Of a DNA stretch of 64,000 nt, positions 8,384 through 55,423 are shown piece after piece. Below the pieces are notes generated by a model, which saw only the letters and a program-made list of their open reading frames with translations, had not been told where the DNA came from and did not search any database. How positions within the stretch are numbered: the first letter of the stretch is position 1; each line of letters begins with the position of its first letter. A program made the translations under genes and the position numbers. The stretch lies in assembly GCF_057098645.1 (NCBI RefSeq), contig NZ_CM169472.1; one strand, given 5' to 3'.

Positions 8384-8412
8384 ATCATGCCATACCGCGA
8401 AAGGTTTTGCGC
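8384..8412 (-). promoter_or_regulatory. lacI promoter (-35 GCGCAA, -10 CATGAT)
   Basis: Minus strand gaatggcgcaaaacctttcgcggtatggcatgatagcgcc, identical to the classical lacI promoter; the -10 overlaps the stop codon of the upstream GlxA-like gene. Confidence 0.75.
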
Positions 8413-9338
8413 CATTCGGCGGGGCTGACGCCGAAGTGAGATTTAAAATGCTGACGCCAGGTCACAGGTGAGAGAAAACCCACCTCAGCCGCTATCCGCT
8501 CAACGGGCAACTGACTGGATCCCAACAGTTCCTGGCTACGGCGTAAGCGTTCAGTAATGAGCCATTCGGCGATACTCGAACCGGTCGCTTTCATAAAATG
8601 GCGAGTTAATGTGCGGCGACTCATCATTACTCGCTGCGCCAGCGAGTCGAGATCATGCTGTTGCGCAATGTTTTGCCGCAGGTAATCCAGCAGGAGATTA
8701 ATGCGTTCATCATGGGTATTTTTCGGCACTGGTTGCTCAATAAACTGCGCCTGACCGCCAGTGCGATATGGCGGTACGACCATCCGTCGGGCAATATGGT
8801 TAGCATAGTCGCTGCCAAAATGTTGCCGAACAATATACAAACAGCAATCCAGCGCCGCGGCAGTACCGGCAGAGGTAATAATGCCGTCATCGTCTACGTA
8901 CAACGCGTTAATATCCAGATGTGTTTGTGGAAAACGTGCCTGAAATTCACGCTCGAACTCCCAGTGTGTGGCGGCACGCTTATTTTTCAGTAAACCTGCA
9001 TAGCCGAGCACAAACGTGCCCAGGCAAAGCCCGACAATCTGTGCGCCGTTATCCCGTGCGGTCGTTAAGGCTTCCAGCAGTTTTTGTGGCGGTTTTTGTG
9101 TAATTGTTCCCCAGTAAGGAATTATCACAATATCCGCCTGGATGACTGCGGTATAGTCATGGGTGGCGGTTACGGAAAACCCATCGGCAGAGTCCACGTT
9201 TCCCGGCTTTTCAGCGCAGATAATTACGTGAAAGTGTTTTTTCTCCGCCATTTTTTCGCTAAATACGATAAACGGTACGGAAAGGTGAAAAGGACTAAAA
9301 CCGGCAACGGCGATAATGGCAACAGTTAGCGGGCGCAT
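8385..9338 (-). CDS. GlxA-family transcriptional regulator (N-terminal DJ-1/PfpI-like domain, C-terminal AraC-type HTH), 317 aa
   Basis: N-terminus VAIIAVAGFSPFHLSVPFIVF is a class-I glutamine-amidotransferase-like fold; C-terminus ...RRTLTRHFMKATGSSIAEWLITERLRRSQELL... is an AraC-type helix-turn-helix. Confidence 0.8.
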   Translation of the reverse strand: MRPLTVAIIAVAGFSPFHLSVPFIVFSEKMAEKKHFHVIICAEKPGNVDSADGFSVTATHDYTAVIQADIVIIPYWGTITQKPPQKLLEALTTARDNGAQIVGLCLGTFVLGYAGLLKNKRAATHWEFEREFQARFPQTHLDINALYVDDDGIITSAGTAAALDCCLYIVRQHFGSDYANHIARRMVVPPYRTGGQAQFIEQPVPKNTHDERINLLLDYLRQNIAQQHDLDSLAQRVMMSRRTLTRHFMKATGSSIAEWLITERLRRSQELLGSSQLPVERIAAEVGFLSPVTWRQHFKSHFGVSPAEWRKTFRGMA

Positions 9339-9357
9339 AACACTCTTTATCTCCGAA

Positions 9358-10134
9358 TTAGAATGTCAACGTTTCACCATCTTCTGGTACGTTTACAAAT
9401 TCGATAATTTGATTATCTCTGGCGTATTCCTTGAGCGCATCACGCGTCAGCAAACAGTGGTTTACGGCCTCCATATGTGTCGCGACAATTTGCGCTTCTG
9501 GCAGGGTAAAATGTGTTTTGAGAATATCTTCTGCTCCCATAATTATCGCGCCATGCCCCAGAACATGCGCAAATCCGGCATTCAACACAACCACTTCTGG
9601 TTGGAAAGTTAGCATTGTAGCCTCGACGTCGTCACGCCAGAGGGTATCGCCAGCCAGATAGAGCGTTTTCTCTGTCGGGTGCTGGAAAACAACGCCGCAG
9701 GCTGCGCCTAAACGCTTCGCCATAGCCGGGTCGGCATAGGTGCGATCGGAGCCGTGCTGCCCTGTCGTTTTATGCAGAGTAATATCGCCAAATTTAGTCT
9801 CGTCGGTAAGTACGGTAAGATGCGTAAATCCCTGTTTATTCAGTGATTCAGCATCTTGCTCATTTTGCACATAAATCAGTTTATCTTTAGGGACGACGCG
9901 GGAGGCTGTTTCGTCCCAGTGATCTTCATGCAAATGGGTCACGATTAGGGCGTCAACGTTGAGTAACGTTGTTAAATCGCACGGTAATTCTACCGTTGGA
10001 TTGCGGATTTCTGCGCGTGCCGTTCCGGCAAAACCCGGATAACTTCCTTTAGGCGCGAGTAACGGGTCGATAAGAAATGTTTTGCCAGCGTATTGGATAA
10101 TTTGGGTGGCATTACGAATTTGCGTAATTTTCAT
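9358..10134 (-). CDS. Metallo-beta-lactamase-fold hydrolase, about 258 aa
   Basis: HxHxDH motif (THLHEDHWDE) and downstream His/Asp ligands; likely ATG start at 10134 (the ORF track begins four codons earlier at a GTG); 19 bp upstream of the GlxA-like gene on the same strand. Confidence 0.8.
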   Translation of the reverse strand: MKITQIRNATQIIQYAGKTFLIDPLLAPKGSYPGFAGTARAEIRNPTVELPCDLTTLLNVDALIVTHLHEDHWDETASRVVPKDKLIYVQNEQDAESLNKQGFTHLTVLTDETKFGDITLHKTTGQHGSDRTYADPAMAKRLGAACGVVFQHPTEKTLYLAGDTLWRDDVEATMLTFQPEVVVLNAGFAHVLGHGAIIMGAEDILKTHFTLPEAQIVATHMEAVNHCLLTRDALKEYARDNQIIEFVNVPEDGETLTF

Positions 10135-20922: not shown

Positions 20923-22062
<1,140 letters not shown>

Positions 22063-22066
22063 TCAG

Positions 22067-22342
22067 CTATTTAAGATAGGCACGAACCAGTTCAATAGTG
22101 TCGTCAACGGATTGGCTGACTTCGCGGCTGTAGCAGTCATTTCGGTCAAACGTTTCCCGGATATGGCTTTCAAGCACTTCTGCCATCAGCCCATTAGCCG
22201 CGCCCCGAACGGCAGCGATCTGTTGGAGTATGGCACGGCATTCGGCATCACCCTCCAGCGACCGTTCCAGAGCATCAATCTGCCCTCGAATACGACGAAC
22301 TCGAGTAAGGACCTTTTTCTTCTCTTCCGGAGTACTGGGCAT
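22067..22342 (-). CDS. frmR: Formaldehyde-responsive repressor FrmR (CsoR/RcnR family), 91 aa
   Basis: [53 protein letters not shown]...; the ORF track extends seven codons upstream. Confidence 0.93.
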
Positions 22343-22368
22343 TTCGCACCTCATCATCTGCACGCAAT

Positions 22369-22417
22369 ATACTATAGGGGGGTATGCTATATGTCAATAC
22401 ATACCCCCCTATAGTAT
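22369..22417. promoter_or_regulatory. Candidate FrmR operator: inverted repeat with G6/C6 tracts upstream of frmR
   Basis: ATACTATAGGGGGGTAT-(15 nt)-ATACCCCCCTATAGTAT; TACT-G6/C6-AGTA architecture typical of RcnR/FrmR-family operators. Confidence 0.7.
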
Positions 22418-22501
22418 ATAACACTGGAGAATAATTGTTGTCCGAAGCCTAACCAGGTGAACGGTCCCTCAAGACAGATGGGGACCGTTTATGTGCTATT
22501 T

Positions 22502-23548
22502 TTATGCCGCATCCGCTAAAACAAACATCCCGTAAGGATGGATTTCGAGGTAATAGTGCTCACCAATATCGGGCTGTAAACGGGTGGCGTTTACTTGTAA
22601 TAAAATCTCCTGTCCATGCCACTCTACGGTCACTTCGTACTGCGGCCCCATGTAGGCGACATGGCGAATAACACAACGCTGACTCTCTTCGCCGTGATTG
22701 CTTAAGGTGATGGCTTCCGGGCGAACGCCGACGGTGCCGCTACCTTGCGCCGGGAAATGCGCCGCGCGCGGCAGGCGATAACCGTAGATATCGACATACT
22801 CTTCGCTAAAGTTCGCCGGGAACAGGTTGGCGTCGCCCATAAAACTTGCCATAAATCGGGAGGCTGGCTGACGATAGAGATCCTGCGGTGAGCCAATCTG
22901 CATGATGTGACCTTTATTCATCACCAGCACAGTGTCGGACACCGCGAAAGCTTCACTTTGATCGTGAGTGACGTAGAGCGACGTGATATTAAACTGCTTT
23001 TGCAGCTCGCGGATCTTATCGCGCATACTGCGGCGCAGGTTGGCATCGAGGTTACTTAACGGCTCATCAAACAGCAGCACCTTTGGCTTGAGGATCAACG
23101 CGCGGGCCAGTGCCACACGCTGTTGCTGACCACCGGAAATCTGATCGACATAGCGGTCCTCGAAGCCTTCCAGATCCACCATTGCCAGCGCCTCCTTCAC
23201 CCGCTGTTTCACTTCGCTACGCGACACGCCAAGCATCTTCAGCCCGTAGCCAACGTTTTCACCCAGCGACATATGCGGGAACAGAGCGTATGACTGAAAC
23301 ACCATGCAGATATCGCGCTGTTGAATGGAACGATGCGTGACATCTTCGCCATCAATAAAAATTTGCCCTTCGCTCGGTTTTTCCAGCCCGGCAACCAGAC
23401 GCAAAATGGTGGTTTTGCCACAGCCGGAAGGACCGAGCAGCGTCACCATTTGCCCTTGTGGAATGGTGAGATTGATATTGTCGATAACCGTATTACTGCC
23501 GAATCGTTTAGTGACGTTGCGCAGTTCAACAAAATTTTTCTGACTCAT
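22502..23548 (-). CDS. afuC: ABC transporter ATP-binding subunit, AfuC/FbpC-like, about 348 aa
   Basis: Walker [10 protein letters not shown], signature [15 protein letters not shown], Walker B LLFDEP; likely start [12 protein letters not shown] with RBS ggagcg; the ORF track extends to 23560. Confidence 0.88.
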
Positions 23549-23559
23549 AGTGCGCTCCA

Positions 23560-25638
23560 TTACGCCTGGTTTTTGGCTTTAGAACGGGAGATACGAGCTT
23601 CTCCGATCAGCCAGTCAAAGAGGAAAATAATCGCCAGCATCACCACGATCAGAATCGAACCATAGGCGATGGCTACGCCATATTCGCCGTCTTCAACGCG
23701 GTTAAGAATGTAGGCGGTTGCCACGCGGGTGTCCGGCGTGACGAGAAAGACGATGGCGCTGACCGTCGTGATGGCCCGCACAAAGCTGTAGATCAGGGCC
23801 GAGAGAATGGCCGGGCGCAGCAGCGGCAGTAAAATGTGCGTAATGGTTCGCAGTGAACCCGCGCGCAGGCTGAGTGAGGCTTCATCCAGCGATTTGTCGA
23901 TCTGCCCCAGGCCTGCAATCCCGGCGCGAATACCCACCGGAACGTTACGCATCACCATCGAGATAATCACAATTGCCGCCGTTCCGGTGAGATAAACCGG
24001 AGCGCTGTTAAAGGCAAGAATATACGAAACGCCCGCCACCGTACCCGGTACGGCAAAGCACAGCATGGTGGTGAACTCGATGGTCTTTTTGCCTTTGAAT
24101 TGTTGACGCACCACCACCCAGGCGATGAGCAGGCCAAAGATAGCGGTAATGGGAGCGGCAATCCCGGCGTAGAGCAGGGTATCCAGCAGTGAAGGCCACG
24201 CGCCGTCGCTCATTCCCTGACCAAATAGCTTGATAAAGTTATCCAGCGTCAGGGTGTAGTCCACGCCCCAGTTCACCGTGAAGCTGCCGTAGAAAATGCT
24301 GCCGTAGAGCAGGGCGTTAAAGGCAATCCATATCGCAAGTATGGCGACCACGCTCCATACCAGGGTGACCGGTAGCGGCTGGACGTCGCCACGGTAGGAT
24401 TTGCCGGAAACCGTGACGTAAGAGCGTTTACCAATCCACATATACTGGATGCAGAACACCAGCAGCGAGAACAGCAGCAGGAAAGCGCCAAGGGTGCTGG
24501 CGGCCTGATAATCCAGCTGCGAGCCGGTAATATAGAAGTAAATTTGCGTCGCCAGTACGTCGAAGTTACCGCCAAGTACCAGCGGGTTACTGAAATCAGC
24601 CAGTGACTGTACCACGACGATTAAAAAGGCATTGGCGAGTGCGGGCTTCAACAACGGCACAAACACGCCGTTAAAGGTTTGCCAGCGGCTGGCGCGCAGG
24701 GTGTAGGAGGCCTCTTCCAGCGAGGGATGAATGGTTTTAATGGCCCCGTCGAGGATCATAAATGCCATTGGCGTGAATGCCAGAACCTGTGCCAGCCAGA
24801 TCCCGGTAAAACCGTACAGCCAGTTGGTGTTGGTCAGCCCAAACCACTCCACCATAAATTCCGTAACATAGCCGGAGCGCCCCATCATGAGCGTCACGCC
24901 TAAGCCGACCACAAACGGTGGCGTAACGATGGGCAAAATGGAAAAGATGCGACCAATAATGGCGCTGCGTTTAGCGATGCGCGTGGTATAAATCGCCAGC
25001 ACCAGGCCGAAGAAAGTACAGCCTATCCCCACCGCTATCGACAAGACGATAGAGTTGACGATCACCTGAACAATATGTGCCTGCGAGAGCACGGTCATAA
25101 ACGCCAGCGGGGCGAACTCTCCCGCGTCGTTGGTGAACATCGGGATAAAAATGGCGATGCTCGGCCAGACGATAAAAATGCCAATCAGCGCCACAATCGC
25201 AATCAGTGAGCCGATCACGAAGCGGTCGCCACCCAGCCATTCGAGGCGGGTTAAGGCCAGCGTCATAATCGCGCCTAGTTCGACAAACAGCACGATGGCG
25301 GCGTAGCCTAAACCGCGTCCAACCACGGTGGCGCTGATGACGATAAACGCCATACAGAGCAATGCCCAGCCGGCATCGAAATAATGACGGCTACGTTGTT
25401 CGCGCGTGGCCTCACTAAACGGGCGGACCAGCAACAGGCTCGGGAGTAAATACCACAGCCAGCTGATATTAAAATGCGACCAGCCGTACGCCCCGAGGAT
25501 CTCATCACTCGTGGACTCCAGCAGGCCATAATCGAGGCTCCAGCTCGGCAACAGGACAAATGCCAGCCAACCCAGCAAAACCCAAAGGAAAATCGCATCC
25601 CGCTTTTTCACGGGATGGAGTGCAAGTGTCTGTGACAT
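23560..25638 (-). CDS. afuB: ABC transporter fused double permease, AfuB/FbpB-like, 692 aa
   Basis: Two tandem multi-TM permease halves; its stop overlaps the longest afuC ORF. Confidence 0.85.
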
Positions 25639-25706
25639 AGCAGTTCCGGTATGGTTGGCCGGGGCAGGCGTCTGCGCTGCACCCGGAAAATACGCCTAAT
25701 GCGGGT

Positions 25707-26738
25707 TTATTTACCCATCTTCACTTCGCTGACCCATTTATTAATCAATGCCTTACGAACATCCGTGGAACCATATTTATCCATGTCGTAGTTGATTAAT
25801 TTCAGGTCGTCGAGCTTCAGTGAATTTGGCGACGTTTCGGCGGTGGTATTGGTCAGGATCTGATAAGACTTCCCTTTCTTCCACGCCAGTTCCTGAGCTT
25901 CTTTTGATAATACCCAGTCCACAAACAGTTTGGCGTTGTCGAGGTTGCGCGCGCCTTTCAGAATGCTGACGCCGCCAATTTCGTAGCCTGTACCTTCACA
26001 CGGGGAAATCAACTCCAGCGGCGCGCCCTGTTCTTTTTCCAGCGAGTAGTCATGCAGGAAGCCAATACCAATCGCCGTTTCGCCACGGGCGGCGTTACGT
26101 GCCGGGGCTATGCCTGATTTGGTGTACTGAGAGACGTTGGCGTTCAGTTGTTTTAGATAATCAAAGGCCTGATCTTCCCCCCACAGCTGCGCAAAAGTAG
26201 CCAGGGCGGTGTAGGCAGTACCGGAACTTTGCGGATCGGCAATTTGAATTTCGCCTTTATATTCCGGTTTGGTGAGATCTTTCCAGCACTTCGGCACCGG
26301 CAGGTTTTTCTCTTTCAGACGATCGGTGTTTACGCCAAAACCGAGGATCCCCACATAAACGGCAGAGGACAGATTCCCTTTCACTTTTGCCGGATCGCGG
26401 AATTTCTCCATGATCTGCTCAAGGTTAGGGGATTTATACGCCTGTAGCAGGCCCATCTCGCCAGCCTGCGATTGCGGGTCTAAAGTGCCGCCGTACCAGA
26501 CGTCAGCCTGGGGGTTTTTCTTTTCAGCATCGACTTTTGCCAGGGTGCTTCCGGAACCGTTGCGGATAAACGAGGTTTTTACATCATATTTCTCGCCAAA
26601 CGCTTTGGTTTCGGCCTCACACATTTCATTGGTGGCGCTGCAATAGACCACCAGCCGGCCTTTTGCCTGCGCGGCACCCGTTAAAGTCGCCAGCGCAACG
26701 GCAGAAGCAATCAGAGTAGAGGTAAAGGTCATTTTCAT
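25707..26738 (-). CDS. afuA: Periplasmic substrate-binding protein, AfuA/FbpA-like, about 343 aa with signal peptide
   Basis: MKMTFTSTLIASAVALATLTGAAQA signal peptide followed by a type-II binding-protein fold; the longer ORF (to 27065) overlaps the upstream gene and is an artefact. Confidence 0.85.
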   Translation of the reverse strand: MKMTFTSTLIASAVALATLTGAAQAKGRLVVYCSATNEMCEAETKAFGEKYDVKTSFIRNGSGSTLAKVDAEKKNPQADVWYGGTLDPQSQAGEMGLLQAYKSPNLEQIMEKFRDPAKVKGNLSSAVYVGILGFGVNTDRLKEKNLPVPKCWKDLTKPEYKGEIQIADPQSSGTAYTALATFAQLWGEDQAFDYLKQLNANVSQYTKSGIAPARNAARGETAIGIGFLHDYSLEKEQGAPLELISPCEGTGYEIGGVSILKGARNLDNAKLFVDWVLSKEAQELAWKKGKSYQILTNTTAETSPNSLKLDDLKLINYDMDKYGSTDVRKALINKWVSEVKMGK

Positions 26739-28051
26739 TGTTTTATCCTTCGAGCGTGAGTGGTGGTGATGCCCGCCATCAGTAACGGCATCAGCAGTAA
26801 ACCCATAAGTACTGCGGCGACCGAGAGTAAACTGAACATTCCCGGCCAGCCGTAGCGTTCGATGACCAGCGACAGCGGCCAGCCTGCCAGCGCCGCGCCA
26901 AGGTAAGCGAACAGGCCGAGAAATCCGGTGATTGAACCCGCCGCAGCTTTGTGCCCACACTCCACCGCCGCAAGTCCAATCAGCATTTGTGGGCCAAAGA
27001 CGAAAAAGCCCACGGTAAAAAAGCACACTGCCAGCAGAGCGTAGTGATGAACCGGTGCCAGCCACAGTGCGGCGACTGACACCATCAACCCCAACGTGAA
27101 CAGCAAAATCATTGGCGCTCGTTGCCCGCTAAACAGCAAATCCGATCCCCATCCGGCAAATAACGCGCCGAGTAAGCCGCCCACTTCAAACAGCATTACC
27201 GTGGCGTTGGCGCTGAGCAGGTTGACACCGTGGCTTTCCGTCAGCCAGATATTGCCCCAGTCGTTAAGCGCAATCCGGATCACATAAACCAGTACATAAG
27301 AGACGCCCAGTAGCCAGATCAGCGGATTTTGCAGCATGGTGGTGCGCAACATTTGCCACAGCCCCATCGGCGGACTTTGTTGTTCCTGACGTAACTCCAG
27401 CGGATCGTGACGCCAGTGACCAACTGTCGGTAATCCCTCTTCCTGGGGCGTGCCTTTGAGTTGTAGCGTTAACCAGATCCCTAATGCCATGCTGATTATC
27501 CCCGGTGTCAGCATCGCGGCCTGCCAGCCCCACCAGTGGGCGGCAAAGGCGCTAATCAGCGGAATAATCGCTCCGCCAATGTTGATCGACATATTCCAGC
27601 AGCCCCACCAGAAACCGCGCTCATTGCGTGAGTACCAGTGGGTCAGCAAGCGGGCACACGGTGGCCATCCCCAGCCCTGAAAAAAACCGTTCAGTGTCCA
27701 GACCACAAGCAGAAGCGTAAGTGATTCGCCAAAGGCAAACACCACGTTCAATAACCCGGTGGCGAACAAGCCGACGCCCATAAAACCGCGTTGTCCATGG
27801 CTGTCATGCCACAGTCCGGCGGTAAATTTCGACAATCCGTAGCTGAGATAAAACAGCGAACCCAGCAGGCCAATGTCGCCTTTATCCAGTCCGAGGTCGG
27901 TTTGTAGCGCCGGAAGGACGTAATTCACGCTTTTTCGCGTCAGATAAAATGCGGCGTAGCCAATAATCATGCACATCAGCAATCGCGGACGTAATGTCCG
28001 GTAGCATTGATTAATTTCTCTCGCTGAACGCGCGTGCATGGTTGTCTCCAT
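26735..28051 (-). CDS. UhpC-like sugar-phosphate sensor/transporter (MFS, organophosphate:Pi antiporter family), 438 aa
   Basis: ...YAAFYLTRKSVNYVLPALQTDLGLDKGDIGLLGSLFYLSYGLSKF... resembles UhpC/UhpT/GlpT; its stop TGA overlaps the afuA start ATG (cAATGAaa). Confidence 0.82.
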   Translation of the reverse strand: METTMHARSAREINQCYRTLRPRLLMCMIIGYAAFYLTRKSVNYVLPALQTDLGLDKGDIGLLGSLFYLSYGLSKFTAGLWHDSHGQRGFMGVGLFATGLLNVVFAFGESLTLLLVVWTLNGFFQGWGWPPCARLLTHWYSRNERGFWWGCWNMSINIGGAIIPLISAFAAHWWGWQAAMLTPGIISMALGIWLTLQLKGTPQEEGLPTVGHWRHDPLELRQEQQSPPMGLWQMLRTTMLQNPLIWLLGVSYVLVYVIRIALNDWGNIWLTESHGVNLLSANATVMLFEVGGLLGALFAGWGSDLLFSGQRAPMILLFTLGLMVSVAALWLAPVHHYALLAVCFFTVGFFVFGPQMLIGLAAVECGHKAAAGSITGFLGLFAYLGAALAGWPLSLVIERYGWPGMFSLLSVAAVLMGLLLMPLLMAGITTTHARRIKQ

Positions 28052-28123
28052 GTTGCTGACTATATGAAAATGAAAGTGAAAGGGGATGAGAGAAAATCCG
28101 GGATACCTAAGACTTTTTCCTGG

Positions 28124-29665
28124 TTATCCGGCGATTTGTTGCAAAAATGTGGGCAAGTTAACAATTACCCGCGTGCCGTGCTGTTTTTCGAGCGTTAAGT
28201 CGCCGCCCAGGGCGCTGACGCGCTCACGCATCCCCTGAATGCCAAATCCGGCCATTTTCCCGCTGGCGATCCCCACACCGTTGTCGCTGACTTCCAGATG
28301 CAATACCTCTCCCTGCTGGCGCAGGATAATCGTCACTTCGCTGGCTTCGGCGTGTTTACAGACGTTATTGAGCAACTCCTGTAATAACCGATACAAGGTA
28401 AAGCGCACCGTTTCGTTTTCTGGTGTGGAGTTCAGTTGATAGGCAAACTGGCAATGAATGCCGCGTTCACTAAAGGCAAATTCATTAATCAGATGCAACA
28501 ACGCTTCGCGAAATGTCAGTTCATCAAGCGCGGGAGGCCGCAACTGGCGCAGCAATTGGCGGGTGGAGAGATGAATGCGGCGGGCGAGCTCATTGATTTG
28601 GCTGGCTGCGGATTGAATTTGCGCCGGATCACGCGCCCGCTTCACCAGTTGCGACTGGATCTGAATGGCGGTGATGTTCTGACCGATTTCGTCGTGCAGC
28701 TCTCGCGCCAGGTTTTTTCGCGTGTCCTCCTCGGTGTGGATCAGCTTTTCCGCCAATGCCCGCCGCGCTGCCAGCTCGGCCTCCAGCCGTTGTCGGTAAT
28801 GGTGCAGGTTTAGCGCCAGATGTTGCTGGCGACTGATGGCAATGCCCAGGCCAATTCCCAGCAAGGCCTGGGTCGCGAGGAAAATCTCCAGCTCCACCAG
28901 GTTACTAAAGCCCACGCCAACCTGGCGGGCGATGGTGATCATCATGCTGCCCAAAAGCCCGGAGAGTACGCCACCTTGCCAGCCAAATTTCCACGCCATC
29001 ACCACATTGGGCAAAAAGACCACGATCAACAGCAGACGTTCAATTTCAGGTGACAGCACCATCTGAGTGCCGATACCAATAATAAAAAACAGGCTACACC
29101 AGATGATTAAAGAGGTACGCAAGGGGGGATTATGCGTATCGAGTCCCAGGAGCTGGTAGCGATGCTGCTGGCGCAGAAACTCAAAGATAAGATAGACAAA
29201 CGGCGTCAGTAATACGCCGCCGGTAAATGAGGTCAAACCCGGCAGCATTATTGGGCCTGACATAAAAGGGGAGAGCAGGGCGGTATTCAACAATGAAGCT
29301 GCCGTGACAGTGGCTAACAGCAACGTCAGACGCTGCCAGTAAAGTGGAAAACGGTGCCAGAAGTTTTGTGCAAGGAGGGCAGGAAACAGGCTAATAACCG
29401 GCGTTGCCAGCATGAGATAACCGTTCAATAGCTGTTCACTATGGAGCCAGAACATCATCAGCAAAGGGGGGAGCACCAACGCAGGCCAGTAGCGGCGAGA
29501 GAGCAAAATAACAAGGGCGAGATAAACTCCCTGCGGGAGAAACAACACCGCCTGTTGACCGTTATTGGTCAGATAAAAGCTGAGCGTCCACAGCATCAGC
29601 CAGCCGGTTCCCCAGGCCAGCACAATAAACAGCGAAATCACCCAATGACGAAGATTGCGCGACAT
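28124..29665 (-). CDS. UhpB-like membrane sensor histidine kinase, 513 aa
   Basis: Multi-TM N-terminal domain, H-box ELHDEIGQNITAIQIQ and C-terminal HATPase region; start ATG overlaps the stop of the upstream regulator (TAATG). Confidence 0.85.
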   Translation of the reverse strand: MSRNLRHWVISLFIVLAWGTGWLMLWTLSFYLTNNGQQAVLFLPQGVYLALVILLSRRYWPALVLPPLLMMFWLHSEQLLNGYLMLATPVISLFPALLAQNFWHRFPLYWQRLTLLLATVTAASLLNTALLSPFMSGPIMLPGLTSFTGGVLLTPFVYLIFEFLRQQHRYQLLGLDTHNPPLRTSLIIWCSLFFIIGIGTQMVLSPEIERLLLIVVFLPNVVMAWKFGWQGGVLSGLLGSMMITIARQVGVGFSNLVELEIFLATQALLGIGLGIAISRQQHLALNLHHYRQRLEAELAARRALAEKLIHTEEDTRKNLARELHDEIGQNITAIQIQSQLVKRARDPAQIQSAASQINELARRIHLSTRQLLRQLRPPALDELTFREALLHLINEFAFSERGIHCQFAYQLNSTPENETVRFTLYRLLQELLNNVCKHAEASEVTIILRQQGEVLHLEVSDNGVGIASGKMAGFGIQGMRERVSALGGDLTLEKQHGTRVIVNLPTFLQQIAG

Positions 29666-30294
29666 TAATGCCCCGCCAGCAGATGGTGGTCGAGCGCAAA
29701 ATGTACCAGTTCAATGGTGCTATGGCAGTTCAGTTTTCCCAGCACATTGGCGCGATGCACATGTACCGTTTTATGACTGAGTTCGAGTTTAAAGGCGATC
29801 TCTTTAACGCTGTCTCCTTTGACCAGTAAATCAAACACTTCACGTTCTCGTGGGGTGAGAATTTCCAGCGCCTGGGCGGGTTGCCCGCCGCCGCGTAAAG
29901 CCCGAATCGCATCGGCACAGAGATAATGCCCGCCCAGCCCGACCGAGCGCACCGCCTGTACTAACTCTTCCGGCCCACAGCGTTTGGTTAAATACCCGCT
30001 GGCACCGGCATCCAGCGCGCTTTGCACAAAGGTTGGCGCGTCATAAATGCTAAGAATAATGGCGCGAAATTGCGGTTTTTGTGCACGCAGGCGCTTAAGC
30101 AAACTGAGGCCGTTTTCGTCCGGCATGGCAATATCAATGACGGCAACATTGACGTCATCACGGATTAATGCCGACCATGCCTGCGCGGCACTACTGTACT
30201 GACCAATGACCTCCAGATCGTCTTCCAGAGAGAGTAATTGTGCGAAGCCAGAGCGCACCACCACATGGTCATCCACCAGCACTACCCGAATCAT
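29665..30294 (-). CDS. UhpA-like response regulator (NarL/FixJ family, LuxR-type HTH), 209 aa
   Basis: MIRVVLVDDHVVVRSGFAQLL... receiver domain with Asp in VAVIDIAMPD; C-terminal HTH ...KEIAFKLELSHKTVHVHRANVLGKL. Confidence 0.87.
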   Translation of the reverse strand: MIRVVLVDDHVVVRSGFAQLLSLEDDLEVIGQYSSAAQAWSALIRDDVNVAVIDIAMPDENGLSLLKRLRAQKPQFRAIILSIYDAPTFVQSALDAGASGYLTKRCGPEELVQAVRSVGLGGHYLCADAIRALRGGGQPAQALEILTPREREVFDLLVKGDSVKEIAFKLELSHKTVHVHRANVLGKLNCHSTIELVHFALDHHLLAGH

Positions 30295-30596
30295 ACTTTT
30301 CTTCTCTTATTATCTAATTCTCCTATCATGCATCACGGCGCGGCGCTGGCAATCAACCAGCGACAGATATGGAATGGATGTAACAAAATGGCAATAATTT
30401 GCCGGAGCGCGCACATCTTATCTGGCTTGTGAACCGGCGGGATACGTTCGCCAAAACCGCAAAATGCGCAAACTCGCTAACCATTGCCGATTTTTTTCTA
30501 AAAACGCTTTGTTCTTAACAAGACCTTTTAATTCCTTTATCAAACTGACCCGCAACGAAATACTGCTCCCATAACAAGACAGGGGAGCAGACAATC

Positions 30597-31559
30597 ATGG
30601 CAATTTCATCGCGTAACACTCTTCTTGCCGCACTGGCATTCATCGCTTTTCAGGCGCAGGCGGTGAACGTCACCGTGGCGTATCAAACCTCAGCCGAACC
30701 GGCGAAAGTGGCTCAGGCCGACAACACCTTTGCTAAAGAAAGCGGAGCAACCGTGGACTGGCGTAAGTTTGACAGCGGAGCCAGCATCGTGCGGGCGCTG
30801 GCTTCTGGCGACGTGCAAATCGGCAACCTTGGTTCCAGCCCGTTAGCGGTTGCAGCCAGCCAACAGGTGCCGATTGAAGTCTTCTTGCTGGCGTCAAAAC
30901 TGGGTAACTCCGAAGCGCTGGTGGTAAAGAAAACTATCAGCAAACCGGAAGATCTGATTGGCAAACGCATCGCCGTACCGTTTATCTCCACCACCCACTA
31001 CAGCCTGCTGGCGGCGCTGAAACACTGGGGCATTAAACCCGGGCAAGTGGAGATTGTGAACCTGCAGCCGCCCGCGATTATCGCTGCCTGGCAGCGGGGA
31101 GATATTGATGGTGCTTATGTCTGGGCACCGGCGGTTAACGCCCTGGAAAAAGACGGCAAGGTGTTGACCGATTCTGAACAGGTCGGGCAGTGGGGCGCGC
31201 CAACGCTGGACGTTTGGGTGGTGCGCAAAAATTTTGCCGAGAAACATCCTGAGGTCGTGAAAGCGTTCGCTAAAAGCGCCATCGATGCTCAGCAACCGTA
31301 CATTGCTAACCCAGACGTGTGGCTGAAACAGCCGGAAAACATCAGCAAACTGGCGCGTTTAAGCGGCGTGCCGGAAGGTGACGTGCCGGGGCTGGTGAAG
31401 GGGAATACCTATCTGACGCCGCAGCAACAAACGGCAGAACTGACCGGACCGGTGAACAAAGCGATCATCGACACCGCGCAGTTTTTGAAAGAGCAGGGCA
31501 AGGTCCCGGCTGTAGCGAATGATTACAGCCAGTACGTTACCTCGCGCTTCGTGCAATAA
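30597..31559 (+). CDS. tauA: Taurine ABC transporter periplasmic binding protein TauA, 320 aa
   Basis: MAISSRNTLLAALAFIAFQAQAVNVTVAYQTSAEPAKVAQAD... Confidence 0.95.
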   Translation: MAISSRNTLLAALAFIAFQAQAVNVTVAYQTSAEPAKVAQADNTFAKESGATVDWRKFDSGASIVRALASGDVQIGNLGSSPLAVAASQQVPIEVFLLASKLGNSEALVVKKTISKPEDLIGKRIAVPFISTTHYSLLAALKHWGIKPGQVEIVNLQPPAIIAAWQRGDIDGAYVWAPAVNALEKDGKVLTDSEQVGQWGAPTLDVWVVRKNFAEKHPEVVKAFAKSAIDAQQPYIANPDVWLKQPENISKLARLSGVPEGDVPGLVKGNTYLTPQQQTAELTGPVNKAIIDTAQFLKEQGKVPAVANDYSQYVTSRFVQ

Positions 31560-35616: not shown

Positions 35617-38526
<2,910 letters not shown>

Positions 38527-52691: not shown

Positions 52692-54971
52692 ATGAATAGA
52701 ATTAATATATTGGTCATCTGTATGGTCGTATTTTTTATGACTGGCAATGCATGTGCCACAGAGTGGATCAGTAGCGAGGACCTTATCACCTCTGACTTTC
52801 ATCTTATGACGGCAGATGAGCGCAACGTGGTTAAAGCGGCAACCGACGATAGTATGGAAGCTGCTTATATGCTAAAAGATAATATCCGCTGGTATTATCA
52901 TAATGGTGACCTATCATTACCCGCTAACTTCAGCAATCAAAATAAACTGGTGGTGAACGGTAATTTAACGATTTCCGGCGATTATGATGATTATCTGTCA
53001 GGTAATGGTCATCTGATTGTATTAGGTAATGTTATTGTCGATAACTTTATTAATCATGATTTCGCGTATGTCAAAGGACAGATGACAGCGAAAGGTTTAG
53101 TTTATGCTGATTACAATGATCATAACTTTGAAGTGATGAAGGGAATTAGTGCGCGAGGCATTATTGTTTCCGATAAAGCAACGCAATTTGAAGTCATTAA
53201 AGCTGAATTTTATATCAATGAAGATGGAAGTGGTGAAGGATATAACTGGGATGAGAATATTCAAAAAGCCTATTCACTGGTGACTGCCGATCTTTATGAT
53301 CACACTGAAATCGAAACCGATAACATTTCCAATGCGTATCCTGACTATGATAGCGTCGCAGACAACATCGTTCAGGGTTTACCGCTTTTTCGAGATAAAG
53401 CCGCTCCTGAAATTAATGAGAAATTAAAATGGATTGAAACGGGGAAACTCGATAATTTCCCAGCGAATAAAATAAAGCATCAAGATCCACTGGTGGTACG
53501 TTTTTTGACTCATACAGAGAGTTTATCACCCGCCGTTATGCTGCAACTGTTACAGCACCCCGATGACCAGACGCGTGAATCGATGGCGCAGTCCTGGCCC
53601 GCTCAACAGATGCATTTGCTTACCGATGAATTAATTAAAGATGAGGCTGTTGCCAGAGGGCTGGTTAAAAACAGTAATATTTCCGCCGATGTGAATAAAA
53701 AATTAATGTCTGTACCCGTCGAGAGCGTACAGCTGGAGCAGGCCAGACAGGATAATCTTTCTCCAGATATTGTTGCGTCGTTAAGTCATAGCCCCTTTCT
53801 CAGTGTACGCAAGACATTACTCAGCCATTACGATTACGCCTGGCTGGTTCCGACTGCAGTGGCCGATGAGTTGATAAATAACGAAGACCCGGAGTTACGT
53901 GAAAGAATTACCGGAGCAGATTTAACCGCACAACAAGCAGTGATGTTGAGTAAAGATAAATCACTGAAAGTTCGTGAAGCATTAGCCCGGACGCTTACTG
54001 AATTAAAAATTACCCAACTGTCAGCAACCCTGCGTACAGAGGATATTGAACGTATCGCAGAACAAATGTATCTGGATAATAAAGAAAATAAAAATATCGT
54101 AAAAGCGTTATTGATAGCGTTGCCGGAGATGCGTCAACTGTCTCTGGCAAAAGAAGATGTGCACAATTTGCGCGAAGGTGCGCGTTATCTGACATCGAAG
54201 GACGTGATTAGTTATCTATTGACTCAGCATGATGTTCCCACCGTCTGGGATGAGCTGGCACGCGATAAATTATTGCCGCTGGAATATAAGAAACAGTTAT
54301 GGCAACGCACATTAAATTTAATGATGAGCAAACGGCAAGAAGATCAAGAGCAAGCCTACGAAGTACAGCTGGCGCTGATTGATAATGGTGTTGTTGACGA
54401 AGAGATGTTAAATAATGCCATTGATTTACTGGTTGATTTACCCGCTGAATACCGCTATCGAATGCGTAACCAATTATTTGATAATAAAGATTTACCTTCC
54501 GGAATTATCAACAAACTCGATCAACAGTATCGCTTCAACTCTGACTGGGCGCTGGCTGTTGTCAGTATGAAAAATAGCACCCGTAGGCAAAGTGAAAGAG
54601 GATTACACCGCTGGAACCATGAGGATAGCGATATTTTTGCGGAACTGGCGACGATAAAAGATAAATCAGATGATGAATGGTGGCGTGCATTGCTGCAAAG
54701 TCGCAATGATCATTTGCGCCAAACGGCATTACGCAACGCACATACCCCGGCGTCGTTGTTAACGACATTGACTGAGTCTCAGGATCGGTCGCTGGCTATT
54801 AATAATCCACAGCTGGCTGCCGATGTGAAAACGGTGTGGCTAAAAGAGGATCCATCATTGCTTTTATTTGTCGATCAACCCGATCTTTCGCAGTTACGGG
54901 ATTTAGTGAAAACCGGGGCAACGCGGAAAATTCGCAGTGAAGCGCGTCACCGGCTTGAGGAAAAACAATGA
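52692..54971 (+). CDS. Secreted repeat protein of unknown function, about 759 aa (signal peptide, Gly/Asn/Asp-rich N-terminal domain, long array of helical Leu/Arg/Glu-rich repeats)
   Basis: Signal peptide MNRINILVICMVVFFMTGNACA; recurring segments such as SPAVMLQLLQHPDDQTRESMAQ, LSVRKTLLSHYD, SLKVREALARTLTEL, HLRQTALRNAHTPASLLTTL; AT-rich codon usage; the ORF track start at 52683 is a TTG, the first ATG is at 52692. Confidence 0.7.
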   Translation: MNRINILVICMVVFFMTGNACATEWISSEDLITSDFHLMTADERNVVKAATDDSMEAAYMLKDNIRWYYHNGDLSLPANFSNQNKLVVNGNLTISGDYDDYLSGNGHLIVLGNVIVDNFINHDFAYVKGQMTAKGLVYADYNDHNFEVMKGISARGIIVSDKATQFEVIKAEFYINEDGSGEGYNWDENIQKAYSLVTADLYDHTEIETDNISNAYPDYDSVADNIVQGLPLFRDKAAPEINEKLKWIETGKLDNFPANKIKHQDPLVVRFLTHTESLSPAVMLQLLQHPDDQTRESMAQSWPAQQMHLLTDELIKDEAVARGLVKNSNISADVNKKLMSVPVESVQLEQARQDNLSPDIVASLSHSPFLSVRKTLLSHYDYAWLVPTAVADELINNEDPELRERITGADLTAQQAVMLSKDKSLKVREALARTLTELKITQLSATLRTEDIERIAEQMYLDNKENKNIVKALLIALPEMRQLSLAKEDVHNLREGARYLTSKDVISYLLTQHDVPTVWDELARDKLLPLEYKKQLWQRTLNLMMSKRQEDQEQAYEVQLALIDNGVVDEEMLNNAIDLLVDLPAEYRYRMRNQLFDNKDLPSGIINKLDQQYRFNSDWALAVVSMKNSTRRQSERGLHRWNHEDSDIFAELATIKDKSDDEWWRALLQSRNDHLRQTALRNAHTPASLLTTLTESQDRSLAINNPQLAADVKTVWLKEDPSLLLFVDQPDLSQLRDLVKTGATRKIRSEARHRLEEKQ

Positions 54972-55423
54972 CACAACGCCCCTGGAGCAAGTTACAGCGG
55001 GAGAACTATGACTTACTGACGCCAACGATCAACCTGCACATTCACTGTACCCGTTATCCCATGCGCAGCCAAAATGGTGGAAGCACCGATTTACCGCGTT
55101 ATTGGATCACGTTGGATAAAAACGTGATCTGGGATTACCCGAAAGACTTTATTGCAGGTAACGGTGGAGTGCGTAATTTTCACGGTGAAACTTGCTGGTA
55201 TCCTTACCTGACGGATATTTGTCCAATTTCTGATTTATTGCGTGAATATATTGACACCCCAAAAGCGGAGCTGTTAACAAAACAATTTACCAGCGATAAA
55301 TGGGGGTTAGTGAATATTCTGCGTGCTGCTGACAGGCGAATAGGGATGAGACGATTCGATCAGTTACGGCGTAAAACGCATAATATTGCTGCGCTAAAAA
55401 TTATTGCCCGCCGTAGCGAATAA
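54968..55423 (+). CDS. Hypothetical 151-aa protein translationally coupled to the upstream repeat protein (possibly the ykiA position)
   Basis: MTQRPWSKLQRENYDLLTPTINLHIHCTRYPMRSQNGG...; start ATG overlaps the upstream stop (caATGAca); RBS gagga; contains several Cys/His residues; no signal peptide. Confidence 0.65.
   Translation: MTQRPWSKLQRENYDLLTPTINLHIHCTRYPMRSQNGGSTDLPRYWITLDKNVIWDYPKDFIAGNGGVRNFHGETCWYPYLTDICPISDLLREYIDTPKAELLTKQFTSDKWGLVNILRAADRRIGMRRFDQLRRKTHNIAALKIIARRSE

Follow-up and report, generated by a model that had tools for sequence, protein, structure and literature searches.

The uhpABC-uhpT regulon encodes a response regulator, a MASE1 kinase and an MFS receptor that are paralogous to FusR, FusK and Z0461, and it shares with the locus examined here the order regulator, kinase, receptor, transporter. 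Its transporter is the UhpT antiporter, whereas that of the present locus is of the ABC, binding-protein-dependent type. The hexose-6-phosphate cluster VCA0682-VCA0687 of V. cholerae, which we take to be a member of the Pho regulon, has six genes in the order found here (V. metoecus/cholerae-type locus; identities of 42-76%), and Moisi et al. are said to have found in 2013 that VCA0682, a UhpA homologue, mediates induction by hexose-6-phosphate. The nearest relative is O-island 20 (OI-20) of O157:H7 EDL933 (Z0458-Z0463: afuCBA, z0461, fusK and fusR), which carries both afuABC and FusKR (Sit et al. 2015). AfuABC has been described as a G6P/F6P/S7P importer (Sit 2015), transport having been demonstrated in A. 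pleuropneumoniae and C. rodentium. Published accounts give the two-component system a role in sensing fucose and repressing LEE (PMC11644481, PMC6199705, PMC12976359): in work on proteins that match those here exactly or almost so, FusK/FusR mediate fucose-dependent repression of ler/LEE, and FusKR influences z0461 and the fuc genes. In published EHEC work FusK responds to fucose, and Z0461 has been called a fucose importer.

The six-gene locus between frmR and tauA described here is OI-20 of the EHEC O157:H7/O55:H7/O145:H28 group and has already been published; since OI-20 is textbook EHEC biology, finding the island is not news. The one new element is a resemblance: in gene order and promoter the island looks like a copy of uhpABC-uhpT. 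We consider it probable (about 0.65) that this OI-20 island is a paralogous copy of uhpABC-uhpT in which the UhpT antiporter has been swapped for an ABC importer and to which fucose/LEE regulation has been added as an output.

Gene content and ends of the frmR-tauA locus

The window (the whole stretch of DNA analysed, 64,000 nucleotides) contains six intact genes between frmR and tauA, all on the minus strand and arranged as the original prediction had described:

29665-30294, minus strand: fusR (Z0463 orthologue), NarL/LuxR-type response regulator, UhpA paralogue; 209-aa ORF
28124-29665, minus strand: fusK (Z0462 orthologue), MASE1 histidine kinase, UhpB paralogue; 513 aa
26735-28051, minus strand: z0461, UhpC-like MFS protein of the organophosphate:Pi antiporter family; 438-aa ORF
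25707-26738, minus strand: afuA, periplasmic sugar-phosphate binding protein; 343 aa
23560-25638, minus strand: afuB, fused double permease; 692-aa ORF
22502-23548, minus strand: afuC, ABC ATPase; 348 aa, RefSeq start at 23548

The family assignments are far above chance (NCBIfam E-values of 3.5e-57 to 6e-211), and the six genes are likewise annotated by RefSeq in the 100%-identical record NZ_CP007133.1. Packing is tight: fusR and fusK share 1 nt, z0461 runs 4 nt into afuA (ATGA), and afuB and afuC abut. The true start of z0461 is probably the ATG at 28039, giving 434 aa; GGAG lies 7 nt ahead of this second ATG, and RefSeq takes the 434-aa start in other strains. A 452-aa ORF read from a GTG at the position of the binding protein is too long, the afuA product having 343 aa, and the afuC ORF could extend to 23560 (352 aa).

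Comparison with pathogenic E. coli gave matches to both O145:H28 RM12761 and EDL933 OI-20. The whole window is 100% identical to RM12761, so the host background is O145:H28-like and in this differs from EDL933. Otherwise the two loci differ by few substitutions: the locus DNA is 99.2% identical to that of EDL933, with 1 amino acid difference in FusR, 3 in FusK, 5 in AfuB, 1 in AfuC and none in Z0461 or AfuA. The six genes, their order and their site are the same, and this near-identity to Z0458-Z0463 at the common frmR/tauA site places the locus in OI-20, an island whose published identity and gene names (fusK, fusR, z0461) the original prediction had missed.

The entire frmR-tauA intergenic space (22364-30596, the interval given in the original prediction) was also compared with other alleles of the site. 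The K-12 content named in the original prediction (yaiO, yaiX, IS2, yaiP and yaiS) proved exact, the allele reading yaiO, yaiX::IS2A, yaiP, ykiC, yaiS; none of that DNA was found elsewhere in the window, where its presence would have spoken against a replacement. A third allele is empty. Two further features were noted:

22435-30458, no strand assigned: extent of the inserted DNA, which stands in place of either the yaiO-yaiS block or the sequence of the empty site (from blastn and from alignment of the junctions with the yai and empty alleles)
22460-22489, minus strand: 9-bp stem-loop directly after the afuC stop (read from the sequence)

The block common to copies located elsewhere in other strains spans 22480-30388; in those strains the 7.9-kb block is found next to ulaE or, at tRNA-Sec, next to a tyrosine integrase. 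Within the window we found no integrase, tRNA target or flanking direct repeats of the kind expected of an integrase-borne island, and because the island ends lack all three we propose no insertion mechanism for this site. K-12 has an afuC and truncated afuB in its CP4-6 prophage remnant, with ~86% DNA identity to afuC and the 3' end of afuB; this remnant, which adjoins mmuPM and also occurs on plasmids, is cut by IS1 and lacks afuA, the receptor and the two-component system.

The stem-loop past afuC, which has no T-run, is a possible terminator or 3' end. An Rfam scan of 21500-31500 returned no RNA families. A candidate fusR promoter at 30325-30352 is possible; it comes from a consensus scan of the region whose promoter and terminator sites were no more numerous than in shuffles. 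A hairpin in the afuA-afuB spacer is not claimed as a feature because its stability was no better than that of shuffles (z = -0.65).

The predicted AfuABC importer

AfuA is 76-77% identical to the crystallised A. pleuropneumoniae AfuA, and a phmmer search of the PDB matched 4R72-4R75 (AfuA) at 1.5e-169 and 8X1A at 1.7e-173. Its sugar-phosphate ligand residues, as defined in PMC4546632 (S37, T150, H205, D206 and E229), are conserved at five of five positions and invariant in the alignment, and the motifs GSGST, SSGTAYT, FLHDY and GYEIGG are all conserved. The A. pleuropneumoniae system (PDB 4R72-4R75) has identical ligand residues and, like the present locus, a fused permease and an ATPase. A fused double permease and an ABC ATPase adjoin afuA here: AfuB comprises two permease modules that match sulfate/molybdate-type permease models (its Vibrio orthologue contains a BPD_transp_1 domain), and AfuC completes the set. 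The AfuA protein of EHEC is identical to that encoded in the window. These analyses support the earlier claim of an AfuABC-type system, a predicted sugar-phosphate importer.

The database names suggest another function. AfuC scores 699.5 against the NCBIfam 'FbpC' equivalog (cutoff 496; alignment from residue 5 of the long ORF), and if the 'fbpC / ferric ABC transporter' annotation used by RefSeq and NCBIfam were taken literally, AfuABC would be a ferric-iron uptake system. AfuA does have distant similarity to FbpA/HitA (E of about 1e-11), and the FbpABC/HitABC transporters share its binding-protein fold class and have a similar operon layout, but identity is 22%. In an alignment with Neisseria FbpA (sequence verified against 1R1N), the iron ligands H9/E57/Y195/Y196 correspond to T/G/G/F in AfuA. 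All four are thus absent, including the Tyr/His ligands that the original prediction had named as evidence to the contrary, and an FbpA-type ferric binding protein is ruled out. The five retained sugar-phosphate ligands, the overall identity to AfuA and the carriage of G6P/F6P by orthologous systems likewise make ferric uptake extremely improbable.

The regulatory trio and the predicted z0461 promoter

The best curated matches of the three regulatory proteins are UhpA, UhpB and UhpC, as expected of the UhpABC-like trio first proposed, with identities to the K-12 proteins of 50%, 38% and 52.5%, respectively. FusR scores 193.4 bits against UhpA (NF007685), below the cutoff of 258. FusK is comprised of MASE1 (residues 11-281), HisKA_3 (316-380) and HATPase_c (423-505) Pfam domains, the architecture of UhpB, and matches the UhpB model end to end at 380 bits (NF008649; cutoff 408); given a score under the equivalog cutoff and an identity of 38%, we regard it as a UhpB paralogue and not as UhpB proper. 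Z0461 exceeds the cutoff of the UhpC subfamily (NF008661; 587.7 bits against 564) and is 31% identical to UhpT. The transport literature on UhpT and GlpT assigns roles to R46, R275 and D388/K391, the arginines forming the organophosphate-binding pair. Z0461 keeps UhpT R46, K82 and R275 (its R39 and R259 are invariant) and has T/L at the D388/K391 columns, as does UhpC.

Further inspection of the DNA upstream of z0461 suggested three regulatory elements:

28107-28123, minus strand: predicted conserved palindromic operator CCAGGAAAAAGTCTTAG, consensus CYAGGAA-N3-TTCYTAG (footprint in 71 unique orthologous promoters)
28059-28091, minus strand: predicted z0461 promoter core, with box TCTCATCC at 28084-28091 and -10 TATAGT at 28059-28064 (orthologue conservation)
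28148-28163, minus strand: candidate CRP site TGTTAACTTGCCCACA, lying within fusK at its 3' end (8/10 of TGTGA-N6-TCACA)

The centre of the palindrome lies about 63-64 nt upstream of the predicted z0461 transcription start. The E. coli copy pairs at just 4 of 8 positions; the Vibrio locus has a perfect copy, CTAGGAAATATTCCTAG, at the corresponding place. The TCTCATCC box is present in 57 of the 71 orthologous promoters and begins 24-25 nt from the palindrome centre in every orthologue having both (52/52). In each of 67 orthologous promoters (67/67) a CRP-like site precedes the palindrome centre by exactly 40.5 nt, a position corresponding to the CAP site of uhpT. This CRP-like site overlaps conserved fusK codons, so its conservation may be at the codon level; no CRP-like site was present in the K-12 uhpB 3' end.

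These predicted elements match the uhpT type in sequence and spacing, and the match is conserved as far as Vibrio: in the predicted z0461 promoter, as in that of uhpT, the palindrome would fall near -64, the second box near -35 and the CRP-like site near -104, and the -10 is weak. When the palindrome was used as a PWM, the best non-self match in the 164 kb scanned was the known UhpA palindrome in front of K-12 uhpT. Aligned with the uhpT promoter of K-12, the 73-nt z0461 region has 47 identities in 70 positions, and none of 3,000 shuffles reached the score of this alignment. An nhmmer search with the whole intergenic profile matched the uhpT operator at only E=3.4, and we therefore base the claimed likeness on the rank in the PWM scan and on the alignment controlled by shuffles. 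We suggest that the conserved DNA in front of z0461 resembles the uhpT promoter, its palindrome near -64 being of the UhpA type. Since this presumptive regulated promoter precedes the receptor gene, the receptor would be cotranscribed with the transporter, unlike in uhp.

Such resemblance raises the possibility of cross-talk, as FusR and UhpA have a common recognition helix. D54 and the helix LSxKTVHVHRAN are invariant across FusR, UhpA and the Vibrio regulator, and the uhpT and z0461 operators are alike, so that housekeeping UhpA might mainly serve the z0461-afuABC promoter while FusR has drifted to targets such as ler. Retention of the regulator and kinase beside the transporter in every complete locus examined argues instead that the pair is dedicated to it. 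The uhpT site also departs somewhat from the half-site consensus CYAGGAA, and the Vibrio system is reported to depend on its own UhpA homologue. We therefore think it improbable that UhpA is the main regulator here.

Sugar phosphate, fucose and the function of the trio

Gene order was surveyed in 80 loci, the best-scoring of 373 AfuA loci; they represent 80 species, every one of them in Enterobacterales. The order RR-HK-MFS-AfuA-AfuB-AfuC on one strand was complete in 73 loci, that is, in all that were long enough, and in the other 7 it agrees as far as the DNA extends; in none of the 80 is uhpT adjacent. Beyond Enterobacterales the sample comprised one Vibrio and one Pasteurellaceae locus. 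The Vibrio locus has the six genes in identical order, with a 113-nt gap between the receptor and binding-protein genes in place of the 4-nt overlap seen here. The six genes occur together, in one order, in about 30 LEE-less genera, which range from plant pathogens and insect symbionts to a Vibrio.

Because published work ties the two-component system to fucose, sugar-phosphate sensing by the trio is something that we infer; the synteny and promoter analysis strengthens this view without proving it. The trio may be primarily a Uhp-like hexose-phosphate switch for z0461-afuABC, standing beside the published fucose role and not replacing it. In such a scheme, the UhpC-like receptor Z0461 would detect external hexose phosphate and signal to the MASE1 kinase FusK, which would phosphorylate FusR at D54. 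FusR~P would then occupy 28107-28123, the palindrome some 64 nt ahead of the transcription start, and, with CRP, drive a single z0461-afuABC transcript. The z0461/afuA overlap is consistent with a single operon. In O157:H7 Sakai at glucose exhaustion, ECs0415 (afuA) is upregulated 37-fold and ECs0416 rises too. Fucose/LEE regulation in EHEC would be an output added to an older nutrient-uptake switch.

Published work supports a different model, in which FusK is a direct fucose sensor, FusR represses ler, z0461 and fuc, Z0461 is an accessory fucose importer and afuABC is an independent neighbour. According to a review of Pacheco 2012, fucose stimulates FusK autophosphorylation and FusR binds the ler promoter. 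Deletion of z0461 reduces fuc expression and growth on fucose, FusKR represses z0461, and in an independent 2026 study the effects of fucose on LEE were again fusKR dependent. This model does not readily account for the maintenance of six genes in one order in so many genera that lack LEE, nor for a Z0461 that passes the curated UhpC cutoff and retains the phosphate-binding arginines of the organophosphate family, shares 4 nt with afuA and lies behind a predicted uhpT-type activator promoter. We consider it unlikely as a full explanation, less so than UhpA cross-talk.

Some observations also count against a Uhp-type switch. Published EHEC work has fucose as the signal and FusR repressing, not activating, z0461 and the fuc genes. 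The likeness of the two operators is moderate, the CRP-like site coincides with conserved codons, and the gene-order survey covered Enterobacterales and one Vibrio locus. The Pasteurellaceae locus, from Gallibacterium, has afuABC without an adjacent two-component system or receptor. We hold the chances to be about even that FusK, FusR and Z0461 were ancestrally, and still are primarily, a Uhp-type switch targeting z0461-afuABC, with fucose/LEE control a lineage-specific overlay or indirect.

The comparison is of value because FusKR, studied as a fucose sensor controlling virulence, and AfuABC, studied as an importer of sugar phosphates that gut colonisation requires, belong to a single conserved module whose two literatures have not been connected. 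If the Uhp-type reading is true, it would change the interpretation of EHEC 'fucose sensing', and it would predict possible cross-talk of UhpA and FusR at each other's operators. Should the trio be a dedicated regulator of afuABC, sugar phosphates from the host or its microbiota may be among the signals feeding into LEE repression, and the in vivo phenotypes of fusKR mutants may in part reflect lost AfuABC expression. The module, which occurs in roughly 10% of complete E. coli genomes as well as in many Enterobacterales that are not pathogens, would then be a nutrient-uptake trait and not an O157-specific virulence acquisition.

Gene content and alleles of the frmR-tauA locus

As the original prediction had described, six genes lie on the minus strand of the window between frmR (end 22342) and tauA (start 30597), and all six ORFs are intact.

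Genes of the frmR-tauA locus (window coordinates)
29665-30294, minus strand: fusR, 209 aa
28124-29665, minus strand: fusK, 513 aa
26735-28051, minus strand: z0461, 438 aa (434 aa from 28039 more probable)
25707-26738, minus strand: afuA, 343 aa
23560-25638, minus strand: afuB, 692 aa
22502-23548, minus strand: afuC, 348 aa

The genes are tightly packed, with a 1-nt overlap between fusR and fusK, a 4-nt overlap (ATGA) between z0461 and afuA, and afuC abutting afuB. Spacers of notable length occur only between fusK and z0461 (72 nt) and between afuA and afuB (68 nt). A 452-aa ORF with a GTG start for the binding protein was rejected as an over-extension; the methionine of MKMTF is the start in RefSeq and in homologues. 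The pattern ATGGAG...ATG opens both z0461 (28037-28051) and afuC (23546-23560), and the GGAG within these first codons is well suited as the Shine-Dalgarno sequence of the downstream ATG, at 28039 and 23548, respectively. Among strains in RefSeq, the z0461 product is annotated as either 438 or 434 aa.

The locus was 100% identical to that of E. coli O145:H28 RM12761 over a 9-kb stretch and 99.2% identical to that of O157:H7 EDL933, in which the six-gene set likewise is flanked by frmR and tauA. Compared with the EDL933 proteins, AfuA and Z0461 showed no residue differences, FusR and AfuC showed one each, FusK showed three, and AfuB showed five. Sit et al. (2015) placed the afuABC genes of EHEC on O-island OI-20 with the fucose-sensing system FusKR; later papers designate Z0462 and Z0463 fusK and fusR and describe Z0461 as a fucose transporter "for optimal import." Since OI-20 has already been named in these papers, the island is known, and our finding is a rediscovery.

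In K-12 MG1655, the interval between frmR and tauA contains yaiO, yaiX (interrupted by IS2A), yaiP, ykiC, and yaiS. The K-12 content given in the original prediction (yaiO, yaiX, IS2, yaiP, and yaiS) was exact, and yai DNA, which would have argued against a replacement had it lain elsewhere, is absent from the rest of the window. Among 5,426 complete E. coli genomes, three alleles were found at this site: OI-20 with the frmR-side junction of the window (450 genomes), an empty site with an frmR-tauA distance of 305 bp (595 genomes), and the yai block (most of the remainder). Compared with the empty site, the window carries an insertion that spans 22435-30458 and has a GC content of 53.8%, versus 51.6% for the remainder of the window. 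No flanking direct repeats, integrase, or tRNA was found at this inserted DNA. In the empty allele (comparison locus L003, 2436-2510), there are 75 bp with REP-like sequence (TTATCCGGCC...) that the OI-20 allele lacks; the yai allele shares only the first 11 nt of this stretch.

The lacI-mhpR interval of the window (8385-10134) carries genes for a GlxA-family transcriptional regulator and an MBL-fold metallo-hydrolase; lacI directly adjoins mhpR in K-12, so the two genes form a further small insertion that varies among strains. An intact autotransporter gene (962 aa; ehaB in the EDL933 annotation) lies between hemB and iprA (35617-38505), and between ppnP and rdgC (52692-55423) a gene for a 759-aa DUF2773 protein overlaps a 151-aa "SF0329 family" gene.

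The sensing trio and the importer

The top NCBIfam models for FusR, FusK, and Z0461 were UhpA, UhpB, and UhpC, respectively. Z0461 alone passed its curated cutoff (587.7 versus 564); FusK (380 versus 408) and FusR (193 versus 258) scored below theirs. Identity to the K-12 proteins was 50% for FusR, 38% for FusK, and 52.5% for Z0461, and the three are paralogues of UhpA, UhpB, and UhpC. FusK comprises MASE1, HisKA_3, and HATPase_c domains, and FusR retains D54 and shares its recognition helix (LSxKTVHVHRAN) with UhpA. Z0461 retains the arginines that match R46 and R275 of UhpT and is UhpC-like at the positions of UhpT D388 and K391. Analysis of these residues suggests an organophosphate receptor rather than a neutral-sugar carrier.

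The binding protein matched the crystal structures of Actinobacillus pleuropneumoniae AfuA (4R72-4R75; E = 1.5e-169) and of a Vibrio orthologue (8X1A; E = 1.7e-173), with matches to ferric binding proteins reaching only about 1e-11. Mutation of S37, T150, H205, D206, or E229 of AfuA is reported to abolish or weaken glucose-6-phosphate (G6P) binding, and all five residues are kept in the window. When aligned with Neisseria FbpA (sequence verified against PDB 1R1N), the iron ligands H9, E57, Y195, and Y196 were replaced by T, G, G, and F. A ferric-iron binding protein, for which the original prediction had looked to conserved Tyr/His ligands, therefore was rejected, since all four ligands are replaced and the sugar-phosphate residues are kept; the sugar-phosphate reading stands. 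The "ferric" name of afuC/fbpC is historical, and import of G6P, F6P, and S7P has been demonstrated for AfuABC orthologues.

To compare gene order, one genome per species was scanned with an AfuA alignment, yielding 373 loci. The best 80 were kept, all from Enterobacterales (about 30 genera), and their neighbors were classified by tblastn. Among these best 80 of 373, every locus of sufficient length carries RR-HK-MFS-AfuA-AfuB-AfuC on one strand; 73 loci are complete, the other 7 end at a contig or locus edge, and uhpT adjoins the module in none. The same six genes occur in identical order on a Vibrio metoecus/cholerae-type contig. Thus, the trio and the importer have traveled together across at least two orders, and many carriers in this comparison have no LEE. 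A Gallibacterium anatis locus (L091, 8001-13118) has afuABC without adjoining sensor genes and with a class B acid phosphatase gene following on the same strand, which may point to another use of imported sugar phosphates.

A predicted Uhp-type promoter upstream of z0461

Alignment of the fusK-z0461 spacers from 71 distinct orthologues revealed a footprint of three elements.

Elements of the predicted z0461 promoter (window coordinates)
28107-28123: palindrome CYAGGAA-N3-TTCYTAG (half-sites CCAGGAA and GTCTTAG in the window)
28084-28091: box TCTCATCC, starting 24-25 nt from the palindrome center
28059-28064: -10-like TATAGT

This spacing places the palindrome center about 63-64 nt upstream of the predicted transcription start, near 28052. 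The orthologues, with the window left out, supplied a weight matrix with which 164 kb were scanned. The site in the window scored 33.4, followed by matches of 12.8 and 9.4, and the second-best match was the palindrome to which UhpA binds in the uhpT promoter of K-12. When the 73-nt z0461 promoter was aligned with that of uhpT, 47 of 70 aligned positions were identical, and the score of 43 (shuffles, 6.9 ± 7.6) was reached by none of 3,000 shuffled sequences. In Vibrio, a perfect CTAGGAAATATTCCTAG is found at the equivalent place (19.8, versus -1.6 for the next match in the locus).

In 67/67 orthologues, a CRP-like sequence, TGTTAACYTGCCCACA, precedes the palindrome center by exactly 40.5 nt, a position that corresponds to that of the CAP site of uhpT. 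Because it overlaps conserved fusK codons, it is considered only a candidate CRP site; no CRP-like site is present in the 3' end of K-12 uhpB. In O157:H7 Sakai, afuA is reported to be upregulated 37-fold at glucose exhaustion, the largest rise among O157-specific genes, and ECs0416 is upregulated with it. These data fit the predicted promoter.

Distribution of the module and its relationship to fucose sensing

fusRK DNA was present in 519 of the 5,426 complete E. coli genomes. Among the carriers are O157:H7, O55:H7, O145:H28, and O157:H16 strains, as well as numerous isolates of horse, mink, pig, chicken, pigeon, water, and human origin. A review confines FusKR to O157:H7; this is too narrow, because these 519 genomes represent many serotypes. 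A 7,909-bp block (22480-30388) recurs elsewhere at 94 to 97% identity: in strain E7-1N7 (L006, 4001-13662) it adjoins a tyrosine integrase at tRNA-Sec, and in strain AR_0017 (L005, 2357-11635) it adjoins an integrase abutting ulaE. The module therefore also moves on integrative islands. In both strains, an IS4-family element with the terminus TGTGTATAAGAGACAG cuts the afuC end of the block. The complete module is found in Citrobacter, Klebsiella, and Raoultella, with protein identities of 82 to 97% (FusK, 82 to 88%; AfuA, 94 to 97%). Given these modules and the GC content of 53.8%, the suggestion that FusKR came "possibly from E. faecalis" likewise is too narrow. A separate remnant of the K-12 CP4-6 type lies beside mmuPM; it is cut by IS1, retains afuC (86% identical) and a truncated afuB, and occurs both in chromosomes and on a plasmid of 73 kb (L095, 7001-8406; L094, 7001-8407).

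Overall, the interpretation of the locus as a uhpABC-like and afuABC-like island was supported. We conclude that it is probably a second Uhp-type regulon with an ABC importer in the place of UhpT, and we infer its regulatory steps as follows. Z0461 and FusK would detect external hexose phosphate, phosphorylated FusR together with CRP would activate z0461-afuABC, and AfuABC would use ATP to bring in G6P, F6P, and S7P. Published EHEC work reports that FusK is stimulated by fucose, that FusR represses ler, and that z0461 and fuc are repressed. A Uhp-type regulon does not explain away these fucose and LEE data, and the reported repression of z0461 is the main evidence against it. The fucose and LEE effects may be an added output, dependent on growth conditions, or indirect. 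The remaining interest of the island lies in a testable reinterpretation of the primary signal and targets of FusKR-Z0461.
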